A stretch of 64,000 nt of DNA, from positions 42,802-106,801 of IMG/VR virus record IMGVR_UViG_3300047476_002078. One strand, written 5' to 3'. A program made the translations under genes and the position numbers. The notes under the pieces are model-generated. The model made no database searches and had not been told where the DNA came from. It saw only the letters and a list, made by a program, of their open reading frames with translations. This DNA comes from a virus. Positions 4,014-55,784 of the stretch are shown here, piece after piece. The stretch's first letter is position 1; each line of letters opens with the position of its first letter.

Positions 4014-4260
4014 AGAAAAATATGATTTTTTAGTCTCGAAAACTATGGGTGAAATAGAAAAAGCCGTAAAAAATGCTTTGGTTGGTGAAAACTTAACTCC
4101 TTCCGAACAGTTTACTGTTACAACTGGAGTTTCCTTTTTTCTTACGGCTGAACACATTTCCGCTCTCTTGATGAGTCAACCTGAACAAAAAGATTTTTTA
4201 GTTCAGAGTTCAATAAATAAAATTATGGAATTAGTTCAAGGATATTTATCCGAAGTTTAA
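4006..4260 (+). CDS. hypothetical protein
   Basis: 84-aa ORF overlapping helicase stop. Confidence 0.4.
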   Translation: MDKEKYDFLVSKTMGEIEKAVKNALVGENLTPSEQFTVTTGVSFFLTAEHISALLMSQPEQKDFLVQSSINKIMELVQGYLSEV

Positions 4261-4284
4261 TATTTTAATGGAATGGAGTTTTAA

Positions 4285-4575
4285 ATGAAATTTTTAGTTG
4301 TTATTTTGTCATTTTTTTACGCAAACATTTCTGAGGCTTGTCTTCACAGTGATAAGACTGAGTTTAAACGGAAGCTAGAACAGACAAAGGTTGAGATTAA
4401 AATTTTTTGTCACAACTATTTTAATTCAGATATGATTGAGACTTGCGTTAATGAAAATAATGAATGTTTAAAAGAAAACATTAAAAAAGTTAGAAAAGTA
4501 ACTTTTTGCAAAAATGATTCTAATATAATCATTAAAGCTTGGGATATGTGTCAATATAGAAAACCTTGGCTATAA
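4285..4575 (+). CDS. secreted Cys-rich small protein
   Basis: N-terminal signal peptide, multiple Cys. Confidence 0.35.
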   Translation: MKFLVVILSFFYANISEACLHSDKTEFKRKLEQTKVEIKIFCHNYFNSDMIETCVNENNECLKENIKKVRKVTFCKNDSNIIIKAWDMCQYRKPWL

Positions 4576-5535
4576 ATCCACGCATTGAGAAGCATCCTTA
4601 TCTTCTCTTATTCTTATAAATCTGGGGCTTCTAAAAGCCCCTTTTTTTGTTCTTTCTTGTGCTTTTATCTCAATAACTTTTCCAATGTAACTTTCTTTAT
4701 TTTGTGAGAAATCTCTTCTCATACTTTCACTCATTCCCGAACAAGTTCCAAGCTCAATAATTTGACCGTTTTTATACAGTCCAAATTTTATAGCTCCTAT
4801 TAATTTTTCTTTCCAATAAGATGTTTCAGATACTTCTCCGTTTGATTTTTTTGAAAATTGTTGAGGCTTTTCAAAACCTGTTATGATTACATCCCAAGTC
4901 TTCACTTTTTTTACTTTAAACCAACCTGAGCCGTAACTAGCGTTTAAACTTTTCAACATAATTCCTTCGCCTCCTCTATTTGTTACAGCTTCATATAATT
5001 TTTTTGCCTCTGAAGCAGGAACAGATTGAACCATAACGACAGGCACTTTATTACTGAATAGAATGTTTACAACTTTTTTTAAAAACTCTTTCCTTTTTTT
5101 AAGAGGTATTTGACGTAAATCATTATTTCCAAATTTAGGTATGTCATAAACATGGTACTCAAGCCAACCTTCTTCATTTTGTTTTTGTACTGCTCTTTCA
5201 GGAGTACACCCCATTATTGAAGTAGTTGCATCGGATTTTTCTGTATTAGGGTGAACTAACTCTCCATCAATAATTGTTCCGTAAAGTTCTTTTGGTACTA
5301 ACACTCTTGTTAAGTGGGGACAATGTAGAGTTTTATCTACGTATTCTCCAGTAACGTCTGATATTCTTCGGGATAACAATTTAGATTTCCCAAGTTCGTC
5401 AATATAAAGCAAATAACGGCTTCCGTCTTTTTTCACTTCAGCTACGAAGTTTTCATTGATGAAATTAGAATCTGCCCAAAGATTGTCATAGTCTTCGTGG
5501 GGAATGTGTTCAGCTTTAGCAGGATTTACTTTCAT
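4570..5535 (-). CDS. ATP-dependent DNA ligase
   Basis: Motif I EVKKDGSR (KxDG), EGIMLK motif, OB-fold C-terminal region. Confidence 0.75.
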   Translation of the reverse strand: MKVNPAKAEHIPHEDYDNLWADSNFINENFVAEVKKDGSRYLLYIDELGKSKLLSRRISDVTGEYVDKTLHCPHLTRVLVPKELYGTIIDGELVHPNTEKSDATTSIMGCTPERAVQKQNEEGWLEYHVYDIPKFGNNDLRQIPLKKRKEFLKKVVNILFSNKVPVVMVQSVPASEAKKLYEAVTNRGGEGIMLKSLNASYGSGWFKVKKVKTWDVIITGFEKPQQFSKKSNGEVSETSYWKEKLIGAIKFGLYKNGQIIELGTCSGMSESMRRDFSQNKESYIGKVIEIKAQERTKKGAFRSPRFIRIREDKDASQCVDL

Positions 5536-5559: not shown

Positions 5560-5576
5560 GGCTATACCGATTCCAC
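5560..5576 (-). promoter_or_regulatory. conserved 17-bp element GTGGAATCGGTATAGCC (copy 1 of 5)
   Basis: Exact reverse complement on + strand, ~25 bp upstream of ligase start on - strand. Confidence 0.45.
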
Positions 5577-5611
5577 CGTTTAATATAAGTAATTGAATTT
5601 AATGAGGATTT

Positions 5612-8833: not shown

Positions 8834-8870
8834 TTGTTATAGTATTTTCCGTAAAATATAATTTACGGAA
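8834..8870 (+). promoter_or_regulatory. sigma70-like promoter TTGTTA-N17-TATAAT with CCGTAAAA palindrome in spacer
   Basis: TTGTTA 8834-8839, TATAAT 8857-8862, inverted TTCCGTAAA/TTTACGGAA flanking -10. Confidence 0.45.
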
Positions 8871-8881
8871 AAAGAGGTTAT

Positions 8882-34872: not shown

Positions 34873-34888
34873 AATAGGTAAAATTATA

Positions 34889-34905
34889 GTGGATTCGGTA
34901 TAGCC
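34889..34905 (+). promoter_or_regulatory. conserved 17-bp element (copy 2, GTGGATTCGGTATAGCC)
   Basis: 19 bp upstream of ATG 34924, RBS AGGAGG between. Confidence 0.45.
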
Positions 34906-37970: not shown

Positions 37971-38014
37971 TTGACAACCTCTACCGTAAATTACTAGAAT
38001 TTACGGTAGAGGTT
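37971..38014 (+). promoter_or_regulatory. sigma70-like promoter TTGACA-N18-TAGAAT overlapping perfect 17-bp palindrome
   Basis: AACCTCTACCGTAAATT-actag-AATTTACGGTAGAGGTT; 5 bp before MTase ATG 38019. Confidence 0.5.
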
Positions 38015-38957: not shown

Positions 38958-40033
38958 ACATTCTTTCTTTATTTGATGGAATGTCTTGTGGGCAGATCGC
39001 TCTTAATAGATTGGGAATCAAATACGAAAACTATTTTGCTTCTGAAATTGATATTTACGCAATTAAAGTCACTCAACATAATTATCCAAAAACAATTCAG
39101 CTTGGCGACATCAATAATTGGAGAAATTGGAACATAGATTTTTCAACTATCGGATTAGTTACAGGTGGATTCCCCTGTCAAGCATGGTCTACGGCAGGAA
39201 AGCAATTAGGTGATAAAGACGAGAGAGGAAAACTATTTTGGGTGATGCTAGAAATTATCAAGCATATAAAAAGTTTGAATCCAAATGTCATTTTTCTACT
39301 TGAAAATGTAAAGATGAAAAAAGACTTTGAAGAATACATAACATTTCATACAGAGCAAGCTCTCGGTAAAGTTGAAAAATATCTCATAAATTCTGCTCTG
39401 GTTTCAGCACAGACTCGTTGGAGATATTATTGGACAAACATTCCAAACGTGACTCAGCCGAAAGACAAGGGAATTACTTGGGGAGATGTTCGAGAACATA
39501 ATGTGGAAGCTGACAAATATTACTACACGGAAAAAGCATTACAGTGGTTAGCGAAAGAGTCACGCAAAAAAAATAAAACTCTCAAAGTTCACACAGATGA
39601 CGAAAAAATGCAAATGCTTGAGGCAAGCCATCACAAGAAATACTCAGCACAGCGTTTCTTTGGCATTGTAGAATCAGCGGAACAGGCTGTAGGAGCGATT
39701 CGTGGGCGTTACCTAGTCAATGGTAAGAGACAAGATGGAGAACAGCTTACGGCAGGTTTAACGACGCAGTATATTGAGTTTCGATATGATGGTAAAACTA
39801 ATACTCTATTTACGGTATCGAAAGACAATGTGGTAGTGCCGTTTACTTTGCCAGACCGAGTGCCTGCTTCGGAATTTTTGTTTCGCTACATTACTCCGGT
39901 TGAATGTGAAAGATTACAGACTGTGCCAGATCAATACTCTAGCGTTGTTAGTGATTCTCAGCGTTATAAGATGTTGGGTAATGGTTGGACTGTCGATGTG
40001 ATATGCCATATTCTTAGTCATGCCAATTTCTAA
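38954..40033 (+). CDS. DNA (cytosine-5)-methyltransferase (paralog 3)
   Basis: LSLFDGMSCGQ, GGFPCQAWS, FLLENV, GNGWTVDV; different variable region. Confidence 0.7.
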   Translation: MNILSLFDGMSCGQIALNRLGIKYENYFASEIDIYAIKVTQHNYPKTIQLGDINNWRNWNIDFSTIGLVTGGFPCQAWSTAGKQLGDKDERGKLFWVMLEIIKHIKSLNPNVIFLLENVKMKKDFEEYITFHTEQALGKVEKYLINSALVSAQTRWRYYWTNIPNVTQPKDKGITWGDVREHNVEADKYYYTEKALQWLAKESRKKNKTLKVHTDDEKMQMLEASHHKKYSAQRFFGIVESAEQAVGAIRGRYLVNGKRQDGEQLTAGLTTQYIEFRYDGKTNTLFTVSKDNVVVPFTLPDRVPASEFLFRYITPVECERLQTVPDQYSSVVSDSQRYKMLGNGWTVDVICHILSHANF

Positions 40034-40095
40034 TTTCCTTGTGGCTCATTGTCATGGTTTTTCATTGCCTTATTCTATTGCCAATACATCCGTAT

Positions 40096-40245
40096 GTTTT
40101 AGGGTATCTTGCGTTTTTTGATAATGCTATGTATTAATTCCTAGCGATAGCGTTTAGGGCATTTCACGATTTTTGATAACACGGTGCTTTATTTCGAGCG
40201 GTAGCGTTTAGGGTATTTAGCGATTTTTGATAATGCTATGCTTCA
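40096..40245. repeat. three imperfect ~54-bp direct repeats (iteron-like)
   Basis: GCGTTTAGGGTATTTAGCGATTTTTGATAATGCTATG unit x3 in 250-bp intergenic gap. Confidence 0.6.
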
Positions 40246-40285
40246 TATAAATATTACAAACCTGATTGAAATTTACACATAATCC

Positions 40286-40741
40286 TTGATAATTAATGGC
40301 ATGGAAACAAACAATATCGACCCCTATAAAGTTGACCCTTATTCTTTTAAGTGGGAGCTAACAAAACCTTGCTCAGATTGCCCTTTTGTGAAGTCTTCTC
40401 CTTTGCATGATGGGATAGCCTCGGATTTGCCAAAACTCGCAGAACATATTGAAAGTGGAAACTTTGTACATAGTTGTCATAAAACACACCCCGGAGCCGA
40501 TGGGTGGAATCCTGATTACAAGGGAGCTATTCAAAACTGTGCAGGACTAACTATCATGCAGATAAAAAATGAGGAACTAACGATTCCCATAGTTCGAGCG
40601 AAACTTTCGGGAGAACTCGACGAGTCAAAATTAGATAAGACTGTAGAAACTTTTAAAGACATTAAAGACATGGCTGATTACTATGTGAAGAATCATGTAA
40701 AAATACGCTTTCTTCTTAGGAATAGACATGAACGCAATTAA
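40286..40741 (+). CDS. hypothetical protein
   Basis: 151 aa, Cys/His-containing. Confidence 0.4.
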   Translation: MIINGMETNNIDPYKVDPYSFKWELTKPCSDCPFVKSSPLHDGIASDLPKLAEHIESGNFVHSCHKTHPGADGWNPDYKGAIQNCAGLTIMQIKNEELTIPIVRAKLSGELDESKLDKTVETFKDIKDMADYYVKNHVKIRFLLRNRHERN

Positions 40742-41000
40742 CAAACAAGATTTCATTGAAGCTCGATATGTGAACTTTAAAAGGAAACAAGAGTTCCTTG
40801 ATAAATTTCTCGGAAGAGGTAACTACATTCTTACTGATCTCGATGCTTACAGCGAAGATTTCGAGTGCCTCATGTCTCATGTGGTGATCTGCGATAAGTG
40901 CAACGAAAACATCTCAGAAAATATCATCATCAAAGATTCTGATTTTATCTTTCATTCAAAATGCACGACAAATTTCAGTAATGTTGTTTCACTCAATTAA
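40728..41000 (+). CDS. hypothetical Cys-containing protein
   Basis: 90 aa. Confidence 0.35.
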   Translation: MNAINKQDFIEARYVNFKRKQEFLDKFLGRGNYILTDLDAYSEDFECLMSHVVICDKCNENISENIIIKDSDFIFHSKCTTNFSNVVSLN

Positions 41001-41050
41001 TAAGTGAAAATTCCCAGATGTTAGTATCGGGAACATAAGAAGGAGATTCT

Positions 41051-41440
41051 ATGGAAACAAGACTTATTCGTAAGGGTTCGCTAGGCATCGCAGGAACTTT
41101 AAAAAATGCCGAACATCATGCTCAACCTGCTATTCCTCTAGTTAAGGCTATGATTGATGAGATTCATGATCTCACAGATTTAATTAAAGTCTGGCATCAA
41201 GGTCACAACATTCATGTGATCGAATCTCATGATGGAAGAAAAATAGCTTTCAGACCATATCGAGATGTAGAAGGAGAATGGGGAATAGAAATTTTAATTA
41301 AGATGTCTCGGCAACTTGAATACCCTCTGTTTCAAATCAAATGCCTTCGAGATGTTTTCACGGCTTCAAGTATGATTCAAAATATTTTTAGCGTGAAACA
41401 AAACAAATATCTCAGAATGGGTAACTCAGTAGAAGAATAA
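41051..41440 (+). CDS. hypothetical protein
   Basis: 129 aa with RBS AGGAGA. Confidence 0.4.
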   Translation: METRLIRKGSLGIAGTLKNAEHHAQPAIPLVKAMIDEIHDLTDLIKVWHQGHNIHVIESHDGRKIAFRPYRDVEGEWGIEILIKMSRQLEYPLFQIKCLRDVFTASSMIQNIFSVKQNKYLRMGNSVEE

Positions 41441-41446
41441 TTTTTA

Positions 41447-41469
41447 AGGCAGTAGGTGAGCCTACTGCC
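41447..41469. other. GC-rich stem-loop
   Basis: GGCAGTAGG-tgagc-CCTACTGCC, 9-bp stem, right after stop codon. Confidence 0.5.
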
Positions 41470-41490
41470 AATAATTTAAAGTCTTCTCAA

Positions 41491-41566
41491 CTACCACACA
41501 GATTCACACCTACCGCACAGATTCACACCTACCACACAGATTCACTTCTACCACACGGATTCACAT
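41491..41566. repeat. 4 x 19-bp tandem repeat CTACCACACAGATTCACAC
   Basis: Four head-to-tail copies with 1-2 substitutions, followed by ATGCCACTTGCC x2. Confidence 0.7.
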
Positions 41567-41993
41567 GCCACTTGCCACACGCCCCATGCCACTTGCCCCC
41601 ATTACCATCCCATACCCATGAAGATGCCCTTGCCAAGTGCAACGGAAGCCAAACGTACAGGTAAGCGTACAGGTCAAAATCAAGGGCAGGGAAACGGTTC
41701 AACTGGAAACTGTGAACCGTGCGGAAGTCCAAAAAGTCGGTTTTACCCTAAAGCCCTTAAACACGGTTAAACAGGCTTTACTCATCTTAAACAGATCATG
41801 GCAAACATAAGCACCGAACACCGCACGAGATAACGTGGCACGACAACCGAAAAACGGCTTTTACCCTAAAAGCAACAGGAGGTAAGTGCGGTTTTACGGT
41901 GAAATGCCAAAGATATAATGACAAAGGCTTTACGGTTAAAAATTGCCGTGATAGCGTTTTCGATGAGTGTTAAACCTATGGAGGGGATGAAGA

Positions 41994-42191
41994 GTGTACG
42001 AACTACAAAAATATAAGTGGTGGGAACTTTGGTTCTATAAATATAAGTTTGTCCGGAAATTGAGCGGTGCATTTTGGGTGCGACTTTTGGAAGATGGTTA
42101 TGATTGGGTGAAATTTGATAAAGAAAAATTTTATTCAATGAGTTTTAAGCCGACGACGAAGTTTGAGGTTGAGGACTGGACGGCGAAATGA
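41994..42191 (+). CDS. hypothetical protein (GC-richer island)
   Basis: 65 aa, W-rich. Confidence 0.35.
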   Translation: MYELQKYKWWELWFYKYKFVRKLSGAFWVRLLEDGYDWVKFDKEKFYSMSFKPTTKFEVEDWTAK

Positions 42192-42436
42192 ATTGTGCTT
42201 CGTTTTACATTTGGAAAAGTAAAAGTGGGTACGCTCTGCAAACTTCGGGCGTGGTTGGGAGCGGAGTGTGGGAAAATTTTGCGATTTTGTTACGTACTGA
42301 AGATGGTGAGTACGAGCGAATTGAAGTGAGTGAGGCGGAAGATTTAGAAAGCGTTTGCAAAAAATGGAAGCGAGTGAGTGAGATAAAAATTCCGAAAAGG
42401 AAAGAAACTTTTGAGCGTGAGGTATTAGAGATATGA
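42188..42436 (+). CDS. hypothetical protein (GC-richer island)
   Basis: 82 aa, ATGA overlap. Confidence 0.4.
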   Translation: MNCASFYIWKSKSGYALQTSGVVGSGVWENFAILLRTEDGEYERIEVSEAEDLESVCKKWKRVSEIKIPKRKETFEREVLEI

Positions 42437-42744
42437 GCTATGAATTTGGAAATTATGTAGGCGGTTATTTTCATAACAAAATTTATTCAGCGAAAGAAGA
42501 TTTAGAGCAAGAGGCAAAGTTTGAGTTACACAAAAAGCTCATTCCTTTTTTTAATATGCTCTATGAGGTAAGTTTTGCGATCTCTGCGGTGGAGGCAGGG
42601 GATTCTGGAGAAGACAGGGCGGTTTTTGCCATGTTGGATAATGTTCCACTTATGATTCAAGAGCTAGAAAATTTAGATCAAGAGCTTCAAGTTTTTCGTG
42701 AGGTAGCTAAAGAAGCTGTGAGAAGACAGTTAGAGGTTTTTTAA
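42433..42744 (+). CDS. hypothetical protein (GC-richer island)
   Basis: 103 aa. Confidence 0.4.
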   Translation: MSYEFGNYVGGYFHNKIYSAKEDLEQEAKFELHKKLIPFFNMLYEVSFAISAVEAGDSGEDRAVFAMLDNVPLMIQELENLDQELQVFREVAKEAVRRQLEVF

Positions 42745-42745
42745 T

Positions 42746-43000
42746 ATGGGAGAATTCGATAGCCTTGGTCCTACAGGTACGAGAGGTCCCGATGACAGTG
42801 GGTTAAGGGATACCTCTTCTTGTGAATCGAAAACCGAAATTTTATATTGCCCTATTAGTAATGAACTCTTTTTATTTTCTGGAGTGTATAAGCTCGACAC
42901 GAAAAAAATGGAGATGACTTTATATCTTTACTGTAGTCGTAATAAGGTAAAAAAGCGGAAGCAAAAAGTTATATCCTTAAAACATATAGGATGGCTATAA
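42746..43000 (+). CDS. hypothetical protein
   Basis: 84 aa. Confidence 0.3.
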   Translation: MGEFDSLGPTGTRGPDDSGLRDTSSCESKTEILYCPISNELFLFSGVYKLDTKKMEMTLYLYCSRNKVKKRKQKVISLKHIGWL

Positions 43001-43252
43001 AATATTGATTTTATTGAATATATGTAGCTTACTGGTAAAATAGCATATACCCTTCCTGAATTTATTTGACATTCCATATCATTTTGGTGCATACTTCGGC
43101 TCATAGGTTTGAGAACCTGCGAGTCGCACCCTTTTTTGGGTATCGTAAACTCTCCTCATCAAAAAAATAAAACCAAAACATTTTATTTTTTGAGAGCCTT
43201 GAAGCAAAGCGACTACTTCACCGAATGGGACAACTCTCAAGAAGGAAATGTT

Positions 43253-43819
43253 ATGGATTCTAAAGTTCTTGCTACAACCGCACACAAACTATTAAAGGAA
43301 ATGGGTCACGAGCTACCGCTTGGTCATGTCTATGAACTCTTTTCTAAACTCTCAGGGCACAAGTCTTGGAATGTGGCAAAGACCAAAGACGGGTTTGAGC
43401 CAGTTCTTCGTCTGATTTCCCCTAAGTCTGTTGGTGAAGGTAACTATGAAGTTAAAGTTACTCTTGAAGAAGGTTCAATCGAGTTAAAAAAGTATTACAA
43501 GGTGCAGGCTCAGTCTGAAAAAGAAGCTGAAAGTATTGTTTCTAATTACATTAAGTACCGCATTTGTGACTTTAATAGTGAAGTTGAGATTGAGCAGTTC
43601 TTGTTTGAGAATGAAGGTGTGAGAATTCTTTCCGAATTAGAGAGTGAAGATGATTACCTTTATGAAAATTGGGAAGTCATTTGGAATGATTGTGTTCCTC
43701 AAGTTCAGGCAGGCTCAACTCTTTTTTTATTTTCAGAACATGATTTAGTCAAAAATCATCTCTTGGGAAAAATGTCGAAAGATGATTTTAAGAAGCAGTT
43801 GAAAGCAAAAATGCGTTAA
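43253..43819 (+). CDS. hypothetical protein
   Basis: Start trimmed to MDSKVLATT after RBS AAGGAAA; long 5' leader upstream. Confidence 0.45.
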   Translation: MDSKVLATTAHKLLKEMGHELPLGHVYELFSKLSGHKSWNVAKTKDGFEPVLRLISPKSVGEGNYEVKVTLEEGSIELKKYYKVQAQSEKEAESIVSNYIKYRICDFNSEVEIEQFLFENEGVRILSELESEDDYLYENWEVIWNDCVPQVQAGSTLFLFSEHDLVKNHLLGKMSKDDFKKQLKAKMR

Positions 43820-43827
43820 GATTTTAA

Positions 43828-44040
43828 ATGGAGGGGGATTTATTCTCCCTCCTCATTTTGTGGGTTTTTATGCAATTACAAGCTACGGGTGCAATTTTAA
43901 GTTATTCCATTGGATTTGTTCTTATGTACACTTCTTATTTTGGAGAAATTAAAAAACTCTCCGTTAATGAAGGTTTTATCGCTTCTGGATTTTTTATTTA
44001 TCTTGGATGCTATTTATTTTTTTCTTTGAAAAAATCTTAA
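43828..44040 (+). CDS. small membrane protein
   Basis: 70 aa, two TM helices. Confidence 0.4.
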   Translation: MEGDLFSLLILWVFMQLQATGAILSYSIGFVLMYTSYFGEIKKLSVNEGFIASGFFIYLGCYLFFSLKKS

Positions 44041-44101
44041 AGTCTCTCCTTTTCTTCATAACCTTGCTAATTTGCTTATAATAAGCAGAGTTGGGGTTAT
44101 A

Positions 44102-46249
44102 ATGAAAATCGACAAGAAAACACTCTCTGTTTTACAGAAACTAGCAATTACTTATCAAGAGTATAAGAAATTGCATCCTCGTACTAAGAAGACACCCGAT
44201 GACCCTCTTTTTACTTTGGCACAAGACCCAAACAAAAAAGAGTTCAAGGTTAAGCCTAAAGATATTAAAACAGTCATGCCTTCCAAGACACCTACCAAGA
44301 GTGTTCCGCAAAAGACAGACGACCCTGTTGAAAAGTTTCGCCCAAAGCTGGCTCCAAGTGCTTATCAAAAGCAGATGGATTCAAAAGAGCTTTTGAAAAA
44401 CGCTAAGAAAATGTCTTCTGACGATATGGCATGGCATCTTCTTAATTCTAAGATTGGTATGGGTTTTGAGAGTGGGGAACTTCGAGATCAAATGAAGAGT
44501 CATTTTGGTATTGCCAATATGTATGCCATGATGATTTTAAATCCAAATATATCAAAAGAAAGCCGAGACAATATTGCTTCATGGTTGCTCGATAAAGCCG
44601 GAGTATATTTTGTTTCCAGTAAATCTCTTAAAAGATTTCTCGAAGGTTGTGCGAATAAAGGCATTATCTCAAAAGAGATTTGGGAAGAAGAAGCCAATGG
44701 GGATAGTCAGCGTAAGGAAGAGGATGAGATTGCTCAAAATTACACCGCTGACCAACTTAAAAAACTTCCTGCTAAAAAGATTCAAGAGAATTGGAATGAG
44801 ATTTGTCAAAACGAAAATCTTCCGACTTCCATGATTCAAAAGATGTTGGGTGATAAGGATGTGAAGAAAGCCCTTGAGTTCATGAAAAAGGGCTACATAG
44901 AAGATACAGGAGCCATGTCTGGTAAGATTGGTGAGCGTAAAAATAAAATTGGTAAAGCGTTAAAAATTCTTTCTCATAAAAATGTTCCTTTTGAAGCGTT
45001 ACAAGAAGTGTTTGTACCTTCTCTTAAAAAACATCTTTCAACAAATAACTACAAGGCTTACGAAGTCGCTGAATACCTTGCGAGTCATCCTGACATAAAC
45101 AAGCCAGAGAACAGTGAGCTAAAAAAGTTAGTGCTTCAGGCTTATAAGACTCAGCTTAAATACTACAAAGACGACCCAGAATATGTGGAAGACCCTTACA
45201 AGTCTCAACGTAACTTTGATGAGCTAAAGCACCCTTCCGCTCCCCCTGCTAACTTAAAGCTGTCGAAGGAAGAGTTCTTAGCAATTTGGAAGATTAGAGA
45301 TGAAGGTCCATATAAGTCTCAAAATGAAAGATGGTTTGAGCATCCTGATATGCCAGATGAGATTATCAAAGAGAGTTTGACTAAAAAAGATAATAAAGTA
45401 AAAGACCCTCTTGATAAATATCTTAGTGACTATTCGGAAGTTCGGAAACTCGCTTTTCATCAAGCTCGAAAAAGAAATCTCTTATCAGATGACGACTTAA
45501 TCAAAACTGTAAAAGCTAATTTGAATCTGCATGGCAATGACAATGAACTTATGAAAAAGTTCGCTGAACAAGCTTACACTTATGGAAAAAGCACTAATGA
45601 TATACCTCGTTATATTTCTAAGGGAAGTGATGAGGAACGCAAAGCTGTAGAAGAACAGATGAAAAAGTCAGCTTTCCATGAAGAGTTTGATTTTGAAGTC
45701 TCCGCAGTTTACAACATTGATAAAGAGCCACACAAAGATTTCGCAAAAACTTCTAAGAAACTTGGAAATGTAATGGAAGGTGTTTACCATGGTACAAGCT
45801 ATGCAAACGCCGCTGGGATTCTTTCAGATGGGGTTAGAGTTGATACCGAAGAAAGAACAGGTTCTATGTTCGGTAGGGGTTTTTATCTAGCTTCTGCTTC
45901 TTCTAAAGCTGCCCAATATGCTGGAGAAAAATTTAGTCAGCATGATGGAGATGGGGTAGTCTTTATGCTGAATGTCGCTCTTGGTAAATCCAAAGAAATG
46001 AAATATGGCAGACCCGAAGGAGATAATCTAAAATATCGTATGTTGAGTCCGGAAGAAAAACAAATGATTGAGGATTACAAAAAGAAAACAGGCAAAGACC
46101 TTGATGATAAGTGGCACTACGACCATGACTCTGTAACTGCTAAGGCAGGGCAGGCTTTAGATTATGATGAGTTTGTGGTGAAAGACCCTTCTCAGCTTCA
46201 GATTAAAAAGATTGTTATTGTGAAGAAGACACCAAAGGCAAAAGTATGA
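44102..46249 (+). CDS. PARP-like ADP-ribosyltransferase (H-Y-E class) with shared N-terminal leader module
   Basis: C-terminal VYHGTS ... GRGFYLASASS ... YDEFVVKDP (His-Tyr-Glu triad); N-terminal YQEYKKLHPRTKKTPDDPLF. Confidence 0.65.
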   Translation: MKIDKKTLSVLQKLAITYQEYKKLHPRTKKTPDDPLFTLAQDPNKKEFKVKPKDIKTVMPSKTPTKSVPQKTDDPVEKFRPKLAPSAYQKQMDSKELLKNAKKMSSDDMAWHLLNSKIGMGFESGELRDQMKSHFGIANMYAMMILNPNISKESRDNIASWLLDKAGVYFVSSKSLKRFLEGCANKGIISKEIWEEEANGDSQRKEEDEIAQNYTADQLKKLPAKKIQENWNEICQNENLPTSMIQKMLGDKDVKKALEFMKKGYIEDTGAMSGKIGERKNKIGKALKILSHKNVPFEALQEVFVPSLKKHLSTNNYKAYEVAEYLASHPDINKPENSELKKLVLQAYKTQLKYYKDDPEYVEDPYKSQRNFDELKHPSAPPANLKLSKEEFLAIWKIRDEGPYKSQNERWFEHPDMPDEIIKESLTKKDNKVKDPLDKYLSDYSEVRKLAFHQARKRNLLSDDDLIKTVKANLNLHGNDNELMKKFAEQAYTYGKSTNDIPRYISKGSDEERKAVEEQMKKSAFHEEFDFEVSAVYNIDKEPHKDFAKTSKKLGNVMEGVYHGTSYANAAGILSDGVRVDTEERTGSMFGRGFYLASASSKAAQYAGEKFSQHDGDGVVFMLNVALGKSKEMKYGRPEGDNLKYRMLSPEEKQMIEDYKKKTGKDLDDKWHYDHDSVTAKAGQALDYDEFVVKDPSQLQIKKIVIVKKTPKAKV

Positions 46250-46467
46250 ACCAAGCCGAAATAGATCGCCAAACTATTGAATTTATTGTCAATCAGACAC
46301 CCTCTGAAGAAGAGGCGAGGCAACGTCTGGATAAGTTACAAGTTTCTTTGAAAAAAGATTATTACGAATTCTTAGTGGAAGAAGCGATTAAGAATAAATT
46401 CCTTATAATTAATAAAACTAAGGAAATTCAAGCGAAGATATTAAATTTAGAATCAAAGTTAAAATAG
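46246..46467 (+). CDS. hypothetical protein
   Basis: 73 aa. Confidence 0.35.
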   Translation: MNQAEIDRQTIEFIVNQTPSEEEARQRLDKLQVSLKKDYYEFLVEEAIKNKFLIINKTKEIQAKILNLESKLK

Positions 46468-50091: not shown

Positions 50092-50253
50092 TCAACAAGG
50101 CTCGGATGAGGAAAACCGAGCCTAAAAAACCTACTCCCATACCTATTCTTGGGAAACCGCTCATAACTGCTTGAATGTTTAATAAACTTAGGGAACAGCC
50201 TATTAAAGTAAAATGAATCTTTTTATCTAGTTTTGGGCACATAACTCATTATA

Positions 50254-50270
50254 GTGGAATCGGTATAGCC
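50254..50270 (+). promoter_or_regulatory. conserved 17-bp element GTGGAATCGGTATAGCC (copy 3)
   Basis: 24 bp upstream of ATG 50294, RBS AGGAGG between. Confidence 0.45.
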
Positions 50271-55742: not shown

Positions 55743-55767
55743 GTAATAACAGTTACTTAGCCTCCGA

Positions 55768-55784
55768 GTGGAATCGGTATAGCC
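55768..55784 (+). promoter_or_regulatory. conserved 17-bp element GTGGAATCGGTATAGCC (copy 5)
   Basis: 20 bp upstream of probable ATG 55804, RBS GGAGGA between. Confidence 0.45.

Follow-up and report, generated by a model that had tools for sequence, protein, structure and literature searches.

A conserved C-rich non-coding element ahead of a small-gene cassette in an uncultivated low-GC phage

The locus and its relatives

The sequence analysed here, referred to as the window, is a stretch of 64,000 nucleotides (nt) of an uncultivated low-GC phage (IMG/VR record IMGVR_UViG_3300047476_002078, positions 42,802 to 106,801), and our subject is a non-coding element at positions 41491-41993 of it, which directly precedes four small genes. 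An earlier note on this DNA had described 41440-43110 as an island of higher GC content and deviating codon use, in which some 550 bp with a 9-bp stem-loop, four tandem units and other short repeats are followed by small overlapping genes, and had proposed an acquired moron, a replication origin or iteron region, or a structured non-coding RNA. In our analysis, the element divides into a C-rich half made of tandem units and boxes and a purine-rich half containing hairpins (Table 1). Its conservation in two phage lineages indicates a real functional element, selectively constrained, modular in anatomy and unclassified.

The GC content of the window is 33.1% (mean 0.331). Genes for tRNAs are scattered across it, and its other genes include those for an SNF2 helicase, a DNA ligase, a 5'-3' exonuclease, three C5 methyltransferases and a PARP-domain protein. 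Of the contigs that share a protein with the locus, the largest measures 355,874 bp, which places the phage in the jumbo size range. No DNA match for the window was found among 50,697 deposited phage records. Cultured phages showed no DNA similarity and only remote matches to the PARP protein, and a protein scan of IMG/VR with the latter gave no match. The region 41000-43600 is present with 100% identity in four public contigs. Five further copies of the locus, from two lineages, were reached through homologues of the small proteins. L005, L013 and L083 constitute a close lineage, about 95% identical to the window; L028 and L082 form a distant one, with flanking genes about 76% identical. The window and these five relatives make up the six-sequence alignment of the element. 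All flanking genes between 35 and 51 kb are co-directional.

Table 1. Coordinates of the element, its parts and neighbouring features in the window (aa, amino acids)
Feature	Position	Strand	Remarks
90-aa gene	40728-41000		Left neighbour of the junction
Variable inserted cassette	41001-41490	+	Outside the conserved element; junctions of relatives compared
129-aa gene	41051-41440		Within the variable cassette
Strong stem-loop	41448-41469		9 bp, 4-nt loop, -15.3 kcal/mol
Block A	41491-41566	+	Four tandem 19-nt units, CTACCACAC[A/G]GATTCAC[AC/TT/AT]; Tandem Repeats Finder (TRF)
Block B	41567-41650	+	C-rich, G-poor; three ATGCC(A)CTTGCC boxes (41565, 41586, 41624); small hairpin 41627-41645
Block C	41651-41738	+	Purine-rich; 8-bp inverted repeat ACGGTTCA (41694-41701) / TGAACCGT (41713-41720)
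Motif a	41739-41755	+	GGTTTTA-CCC-TAAAGCC; 7-bp stem, CCC loop; variant of the dispersed palindrome
Block D	41756-41846	+	Variable spacer, unalignable with L028 or L082
Long imperfect hairpin b:c	41847-41904	+	Motif b GCTTTTA-CCC-TAAAAGC (41857-41873); motif c TTTACGGTGAAA (41893-41904)
Terminator-like hairpin	41927-41961	+	Hairpin 41927-41955 (motif d TTTACGGTTAAA, 41929-41940), then GUUUUC
Ribosome-binding site	41980-41986	+	GGAGGGG
First cassette gene, 65 aa	41994-42191	+	GTG start at 41994, fixed by comparison with L005 and L028
Second gene, 82 aa	42188-42436	+	
Third gene, 103 aa	42433-42744	+	
Fourth gene, 84 aa	42746-43000	+	Conserved core of about 54 aa
Dispersed motif, examples	1977, 6926, 14093, 24523, 31305, 31321, 34839, 37983/38000, 57386, 60739		

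Non-coding status and purifying selection

The 553-nt gap 41441-41993 contains no conserved open reading frame (ORF); on both strands, indels or stops disrupt each ORF in at least one relative, which bears out the earlier impression that the first ~550 bp of the island hold no convincing one. A 97-aa ORF of the minus strand was called by gene callers in L005 and L083, and is split by a frameshift or a stop in the window, L013, L028 and L082. Compensating +1/-1 indels lie at most 15 nt apart, L005 has a net gain of one nucleotide, and in the frames examined none of the three block B substitutions is synonymous. Neither a kept frame nor a synonymous excess, as expected for protein-coding DNA, was found.

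When the window is compared with L028 and L082 over four shared genes, identity is 55% at third codon positions and 37% (29/78) at fourfold sites. Neutral sequence should thus be nearly unalignable at this distance, and block D behaves in just this manner. By contrast, identity reaches 89% in block A, 96% in B, 80% in C and 86% in E, with long identical runs. In block B, 81 of the 84 positions are the same as in L028, a value exceeding that of second codon positions (91%). Given 80-96% identity of its blocks against 37% at fourfold sites, the element is under purifying selection.

The C-rich 5' half

The tandem array at 41491-41565 has a period of 19, 3.9 copies, 89% matches and a TRF score of 122, in agreement with the four units reported before. 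The unit occurs four times in the window against 0.09 matches expected, and its copy number is 3 in L013, 3.8 in L028, 4 in L005 and 4.8 in both L082 and L083. The adjoining box ATGCCACTTGCC, previously noticed in two copies, is present at 41565 and 41586, and a third copy at 41624 is one base short; the spacings are 21 and 38 bp.

Blocks A and B together contain 58 C and 11 G in 130 nt; no other tract of the window shows so extreme an excess of C over G. Its strand is that of the flanking genes, in which the coding strand is as a rule rich in G. Folding predictions leave the tract without structure (-8.7 kcal/mol for 150 nt, z = +1.4). It thus has the composition of a Rho utilization (rut) site: more C than G, lack of structure and a length of at least ~80 nt on the strand of the flanking genes. 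Depletion of G concerns the 19-mers, the 12-mers and the spacers alike, and this suggests that what is constrained is one strand and not individual duplex binding sites. For a duplex DNA site such an asymmetry would serve no evident purpose, but it would keep an RNA single-stranded, and we count it in favour of RNA. CCC runs are not exceptionally dense (11 vs 13 elsewhere), and enrichment of UCCC/CCC is likewise unexceptional. A CsrA-type sponge, with a GGA in each unit, was rejected, as three of the four window units have AGA instead; DnaA boxes were also discarded, the best match by eye covering 5/9 positions.

Hairpins of the 3' half

The 3' half is purine-rich and holds four structures. 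In the inverted repeat of block C, one G-C pair is replaced by A-T in L028 and L082, a compensatory change, and one pair is broken in L005 and L083. A U.G pair of motif a became U-A in L005 and L083, and its outer pairs are gone in L028. The distance from motif a to motif b is kept (118 vs 117 nt) despite the unrelated sequence between them. The b:c duplex is equally stable in both lineages, with predicted energies of -17.7 kcal/mol (window, L005) and -17.6 (L028). Its indels (4 and 2 nt) are confined to the apical loop, the b-to-c spacing being 31, 33 or 37 bp, and the changes C-G to U.G and U.G to U-A preserve pairing of the + strand. The last hairpin, ending about 20 nt before the ribosome-binding site, has a 10-bp stem unchanged in six of six sequences, with a sole change in the loop of L005; the predicted energies are -15.1 kcal/mol (window) and -13.2 (L028).

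The folding z-score of the region 41844-41966 is -3.1, and the whole element gives modest values (+ strand, -3.5; minus strand, -2.7). Among 46 proposed pairs, 40 are invariant, one is compensatory, three are wobble-compatible on the + strand and two are broken; as judged from the alignment, formal support for an RNA fold is weak. No sigma-70-like promoter was detected inside the element on either strand. TATAAT at 41913 was considered as such a promoter and rejected, as it is not kept in L028.

A palindrome dispersed in the genome

The repeated blocks described earlier as GGTTTTACCCTAAAG proved to be variants of a palindrome, TTTTACCGTAAAA, that is dispersed in the genome; TTTTACCCTAAA indeed recurs, at 41741 and 41859. 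The core 8-mer ACCGTAAA has 20 copies in the window against 1.75 expected, and the pattern TTTACGGTDAAA, with at most one mismatch, has 24 matches against 2.7. With up to two mismatches, TTTTACCGTAAAA occurs at 27 sites. More than half of the palindrome sites fall into intergenic DNA (~12% of the window), typically 25-76 nt upstream of start codons, in mixed orientation relative to the genes. The densest cluster is the element itself, with four sites within 200 nt (41741-41940): two of the ACCCT type on the + strand and two exact ones of the ACCGT type reading on the minus strand. From this distribution, the palindrome looks like a phage regulatory signal, either a promoter-associated site or a factor-binding site. 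A literature string search with it returned primers and vectors only. Perfect hairpins with ACCGTAAA arms also occur at 37976-38014 (17 bp, between co-directional genes) and 8845-8872 (11 bp, just upstream of a start codon).

The left junction

The stem-loop reported earlier was readily found. It is followed by AAUAAUUU, has no U-run and did not pass our terminator scan, for which five T within 8 are the minimum. The window contains about a dozen such hairpins at gene ends, this one included. The assignment of the stem-loop to the island was not upheld: among the copies read, the 129-aa gene and the stem-loop are present only in the window and L005, and are missing from the four other relatives. 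In L028, L082 and L083 the junction is empty, and the array starts 1-10 nt past the stop codon of the 90-aa gene. L013 carries two minus-strand genes (141 and 108 aa) in place of the cassette, as does the contig d9ClSdgA (which could not itself be read). The junctions compared lie at 41001-41490 of the window and at 1-540, 205-215 and 1866-1875 of L013, L028 and L083, respectively. Since the 129-aa gene and the stem-loop vary between relatives, the latter belongs to the cassette, and the conserved element starts at 41491. The comparison identifies the junction between the 90-aa gene and the array as a hot spot for cassette insertion with three states.

The small genes and their composition

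The island has a GC content of 0.403 (z = 3.24; best other segment of 1671 nt, 0.384), and its non-coding part, 41441-41993, one of 0.461 (z = 4.10; best other 553-nt segment, 0.421), compared with 0.22-0.35 in ordinary intergenic gaps of the window. This sliding-window analysis agrees with the elevation over the flanks that had been reported. The GC content of the genes at 41994-42744 is just 0.389 (z = 2.0), so the excess resides mostly in the non-coding part. Their G-C skew, +0.445, is above that of every other segment (maximum 0.333).

The first three genes have a third-position G of 0.36, 0.31 and 0.235 (z = 6.9, 5.4 and 3.2); the value for 124 other ORFs is 0.126 +/- 0.034. The codons GAG (55% vs 21%), GCG (47% vs 9%) and GTG (40% vs 12%) are over-used. 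Thus, the deviation in codon use suggested before stands for GAG and GCG, whereas GGC, also named then, shows no clear rise (17% vs 12%, n = 12). Third-position C is not raised, hence the bias is towards G-ending codons and not simply towards GC. It is common to the 65-, 82- and 103-aa genes in both lineages, and is missing from homologues in phages without the element. A positional mutation gradient was rejected as its cause. In L028 and L082, a gene for a 2OG-Fe(II) oxygenase of 185 aa is inserted between the 82- and 103-aa genes (L028 1149-1706, L082 1332-1889); it lacks the bias, and the gene beyond it is biased. At 43109-46467, the 188-aa, PARP-domain and 73-aa genes have a third-position G of 0.19-0.20 vs 0.126, and the compositional anomaly therefore fades past the right boundary originally drawn for the island.

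As noted earlier, the small genes overlap: there are four of them, and the first three do so by 4 nt. For none of their products was a family found in Pfam, PHROGs, PADLOC or NCBIfam. The model of the 103-aa protein is a three-helix bundle (pLDDT 88) without a fold match in the PDB; its family has 104 representatives, whose longer members contain no known domain. The model of the 65-aa protein is too uncertain for a structure search. Homologues of the small genes occur in many unrelated phages and small-gene arrays, without the G-ending bias. Because these contexts differ, the genes behave as a mobile cassette. The cassette has probably had a separate history, perhaps shared with the element, and is stably syntenic in the sampled lineage.

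Two local peculiarities were observed near these genes. The segment 42678-42844 cannot be aligned with L005, though its flanks can (95% and 87%), and because of it the product of the fourth gene is uniquely longer by ~30 aa at its N-terminus (84 aa; L005, L006, L021 and L083 have 54 aa); the segment is likely a recombination patch. In L021, an unrelated non-coding stretch of 380 nt (4253-4631; GC 0.46 vs 0.37 for the locus) lies directly upstream of homologues of the fourth gene and the 103-aa gene. It has no Rfam match, and its fold z-score is -0.75.

Searches for known families

With Rfam 15, whose families include RNase P, group I/II introns and riboswitches, no match at E <= 1 was obtained in 39000-45000, and elsewhere in the window only tRNAs reached the gathering score. 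The element alone, searched at E <= 10, gave only two matches at chance level (19 bits with a gathering score of 75, and 15 bits with one of 41), and the loci of the relatives gave none. The element was not identified as a tRNA or a transfer-messenger RNA. An nhmmer search with the six-sequence profile against the fetched phage loci and the whole window recovered the known copies only, and no paralogue. Exact-pattern scans of IMG/VR with the repeat unit, block B, paired TTTTACCCTAAA and the degenerate motif c/d produced nothing or three chance matches. In 185,579 reference genomes, the repeat unit had 50 single matches scattered over unrelated taxa and none in tandem, which is at or below chance expectation for 15 fixed bases.

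Like the GOLLD, ROOL and HEARO RNAs, the element is a GC-enriched non-coding stretch of several hundred nucleotides in an AT-rich phage genome with tRNA genes. Unlike them, it had no match even at E <= 10, and half of it is predicted to be unstructured. Of the structured non-coding RNA proposed earlier, the non-coding nature and the selection are retained; no Rfam family was matched, half of the element is predicted to be unstructured, and covariation is too thin to establish a fold.

In type III toxin-antitoxin systems, tandem repeats of 34-45 nt immediately precede the gene of a ToxN-type endoribonuclease. The element resembles these systems (ToxI, CptI, TenpI and the pseudo-ToxI of phages) in having short tandem repeats upstream of small genes, in copy numbers that vary among phage relatives. 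It differs in its 19-nt units, which form no 38-nt super-period, and in the ~430 nt separating the array from the next gene; no ToxN-like or other defence family was matched among the neighbouring proteins (PADLOC included). PeSLs are promoter/stem-loop cassettes flanking shuffled ORFs in the hyperplastic regions of T4-type phages. Similar to them are the dispersed short intergenic motifs and the swapping of gene cassettes exactly at a boundary, with three states left of the array; unlike a PeSL, the element is single-copy and ten times longer.

A possible function in cis and the alternatives

The interpretation that we put forward, tentatively, is that the element acts in cis as a + strand RNA leader of ~470-500 nt, in which a Rho-loading-like tract and attenuator hairpins would act as a gate to the small-gene cassette. 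Such a leader best accommodates the asymmetry between strands, the location behind a stop codon within a co-directional gene array, the failure to detect a promoter inside the element, and hairpins that end at a U-run ahead of the ribosome-binding site. We infer its transcription, strand, termination and the factor involved from these features. As the flanking genes are co-directional and no internal promoter was detected, read-through transcription is the simple expectation. In the proposed mechanism, the 3-5 tandem units and three boxes (41491 to ~41625) would serve as a rut-like tract or as a landing pad for a single-stranded-RNA-binding protein, and the hairpins 41694-41720, 41847-41904 and 41927-41955 would pause or terminate the polymerase. 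Transcription into the G-rich small genes could thereby be gated, as it is for delayed-early genes, by analogy with lambda tR1 and T4.

Rho-dependent termination and the control of read-through operate in phage early operons, as exemplified by nutR-tR1 of lambda, with rutA and rutB, and by the delayed-early genes of T4. In common with Rho-dependent terminators, the element has, behind a stop codon in a co-directional operon, more than 80 nt that are rich in C, poor in G and unstructured; hairpins follow, and it fronts genes that could be expressed later. It departs from them in being built of exact 19-nt units and 12-nt boxes, conserved at 89-96%, which rut does not require. Unlike in lambda nut, no boxA/boxB-like elements were identified in it.

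Several observations weigh against a leader of this kind. A rut site needs composition only, and this leaves the 96% identity and the exact tandem units unexplained. With 40 of the 46 pairs invariant, the fold is not demonstrated, and the covariation term of RNAalifold is unfavourable. The U-run after the hairpin 41927-41955 consists of just 4 U, below the threshold of the terminator scan, and reads GUAUUUGG in L028. A classical antiterminator formed by a:d pairing was rejected as not conserved (-15.4 kcal/mol in the window vs -6.1 in L028). In L013 the upstream genes lie on the other strand, which makes read-through unlikely in that relative and would call for a promoter at the left edge. Loading of Rho would presuppose a host that possesses Rho. 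Finally, patchy recombination could inflate the identity of short blocks.

A serious though doubtful alternative is that the element works as DNA, the units and boxes being iterons of an origin, of a partition or centromere-like site, of a packaging site or of an operator array, and the palindromes being operators. Four iterons of 19 bp are found in lambda ori, and four tandem repeats of 20 bp form the pSK41 centromere. Iteron arrays (lambda ori, P1 oriR) and centromeres (pSK41 parC, R1 parC) likewise consist of 3-5 direct repeats of ~19-20 bp in variable copy number, with a second short repeat type adjoining the array; the four contiguous 19-bp repeats of the element fall within the range of at least three repeats of 17-22 bp, and its boxes are 21 and 38 bp apart. 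That primary sequence is conserved rather than covarying, that the a-to-b distance of 117-118 bp is kept across unrelated sequence, and that an intergenic ACCGTAAA/TTTTACCGTAAAA motif found genome-wide has four related copies in 41741-41940 would all suit protein binding to DNA. However, at a GC content of 46% there is no AT-rich unwinding region, and the sole AT-rich 20 nt, on the left, differ between junction types. No gene for a replication initiator, Par, TubZ or terminase was recognized nearby (none of the neighbours could be assigned in Pfam, PHROG, NCBIfam or PADLOC). A period of 19 bp does not keep the helical phase, the cumulative GC skew makes a local dip that tracks gene content, with no turn-over, and the b-to-c spacing is variable. 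The extreme C>G asymmetry over all sub-motifs and spacers would be unexplained for a duplex. Thus, of the origin or iteron region suggested earlier, the direct repeats remain. The end of a transposon or another mobile element was rejected, as the unit occurs only at 41491-41564, on one strand, and the window has no inverted copy.

We regard it as rather unlikely that the element is a stand-alone RNA of ~470 nt acting in trans, transcribed from a promoter at the left edge and ending at the hairpin 41927-41955. Its C-rich 5' part would bind Shine-Dalgarno or other G-rich mRNA sequences, or titrate an RNA-binding protein of the host, and its 3' part would stabilise it. Conservation and asymmetry are equally applicable to such an RNA, and the G-ending codon bias is confined to lineages carrying the element. 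At all four left junctions, TAnnnT is located 2-14 nt from the array (TATAAT in L028, TATAGT in L013, TAAATT in L083, TAATTT in the window), yet this pattern is common in AT-rich DNA and no -35 element was seen. The best duplex partner within +/-12 kb is 42201-42450 (-87.6 kcal/mol, z ~ -3.5); the score is, however, driven by composition, and a search for long stretches of specific complementarity gave none. The C-rich regulatory RNAs RsaE/RoxS and RNAIII, which occur in low-GC Gram-positive bacteria, base-pair with Shine-Dalgarno sequences (PMC2790875). Their layout, in which unpaired C-rich sequence is followed by a terminator hairpin, is similar: the element has conserved unpaired C-rich sequence, CCC loops and a 3' hairpin with a U-run, and strong GGAGG ribosome-binding sites are used in the genome. 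On the other hand, the element is 4-5 times longer, has UCCC once, is unrelated to them in sequence or Rfam and lies directly upstream of genes on the same strand. The CCC runs are, as mentioned, unexceptional, and the window copy contains no CCUCC. With the hairpin and U-run placed 20 nt before the ribosome-binding site, no room is left for a separate promoter, and a leader fits better.

A more speculative and still less probable view is that the element represents a new class of phage RNA, a C-rich sponge for a host protein binding single-stranded RNA (Rho, a cold-shock-type protein or another chaperone) or for G-rich ribosome-binding regions. If so, a phage of jumbo size would reprogramme termination or translation in its host by means of RNA and not protein, and the G-ending bias of the adjacent genes would be its co-evolved partner.

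Very improbable, and largely refuted by the contrast in conservation, is a recently acquired foreign island, or moron, with a functionless non-coding part that is either a passenger or a decaying minus-strand gene: the distinct codon use of three genes, their homologues in unrelated phages and the mobile-cassette behaviour agree with it, as do the 97-aa ORF called in two relatives and a G-rich minus strand resembling the coding-strand bias of the phage, but this ORF is split in the other four sequences, a pseudogene should diverge faster than its neighbours, while the element retains 80-96% identity against a neutral 37-55%, and the element is syntenic in all five relatives read, from both lineages. 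The earlier note itself took synteny in relatives to speak against a recent island. The sole moron-like insertion is the 129-aa gene with its stem-loop.

The non-coding parts of large uncultivated phages are almost unexplored, and here purifying selection acts on ~400 non-coding bases. The locus offers defined boundaries, a G-depleted tandem-repeat head and a link to a genome-wide palindrome, and at 500 bp it is small enough for testing in vitro. If it proves to be a gate based on termination or antitermination, it would provide a handle on temporal gene control in a phage group without a cultured member. A trans-acting RNA or an iteron site would mean, respectively, a new class of RNA or the first candidate origin or partition site of this lineage.

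Other repeats in the window

Two further repeats were noticed outside the element. At 40098-40243, a 54-bp unit is repeated 2.7 times (TRF score 178) in a 252-nt gap between a C5-methyltransferase gene and a 151-aa gene. Each unit contains TTTAGGGTA and TTTTTGATAAT, and these repeats may be promoters or operators. A second dispersed motif, GTGGAWTCGGTATAGCC, has four copies against none expected (5560-5580 on the minus strand, 34885-34905, 50250-50270 and 55764-55784). Two copies have TATAGT in front of them and lie ~30 nt ahead of a start codon; the motif could represent a conserved type of promoter or leader.

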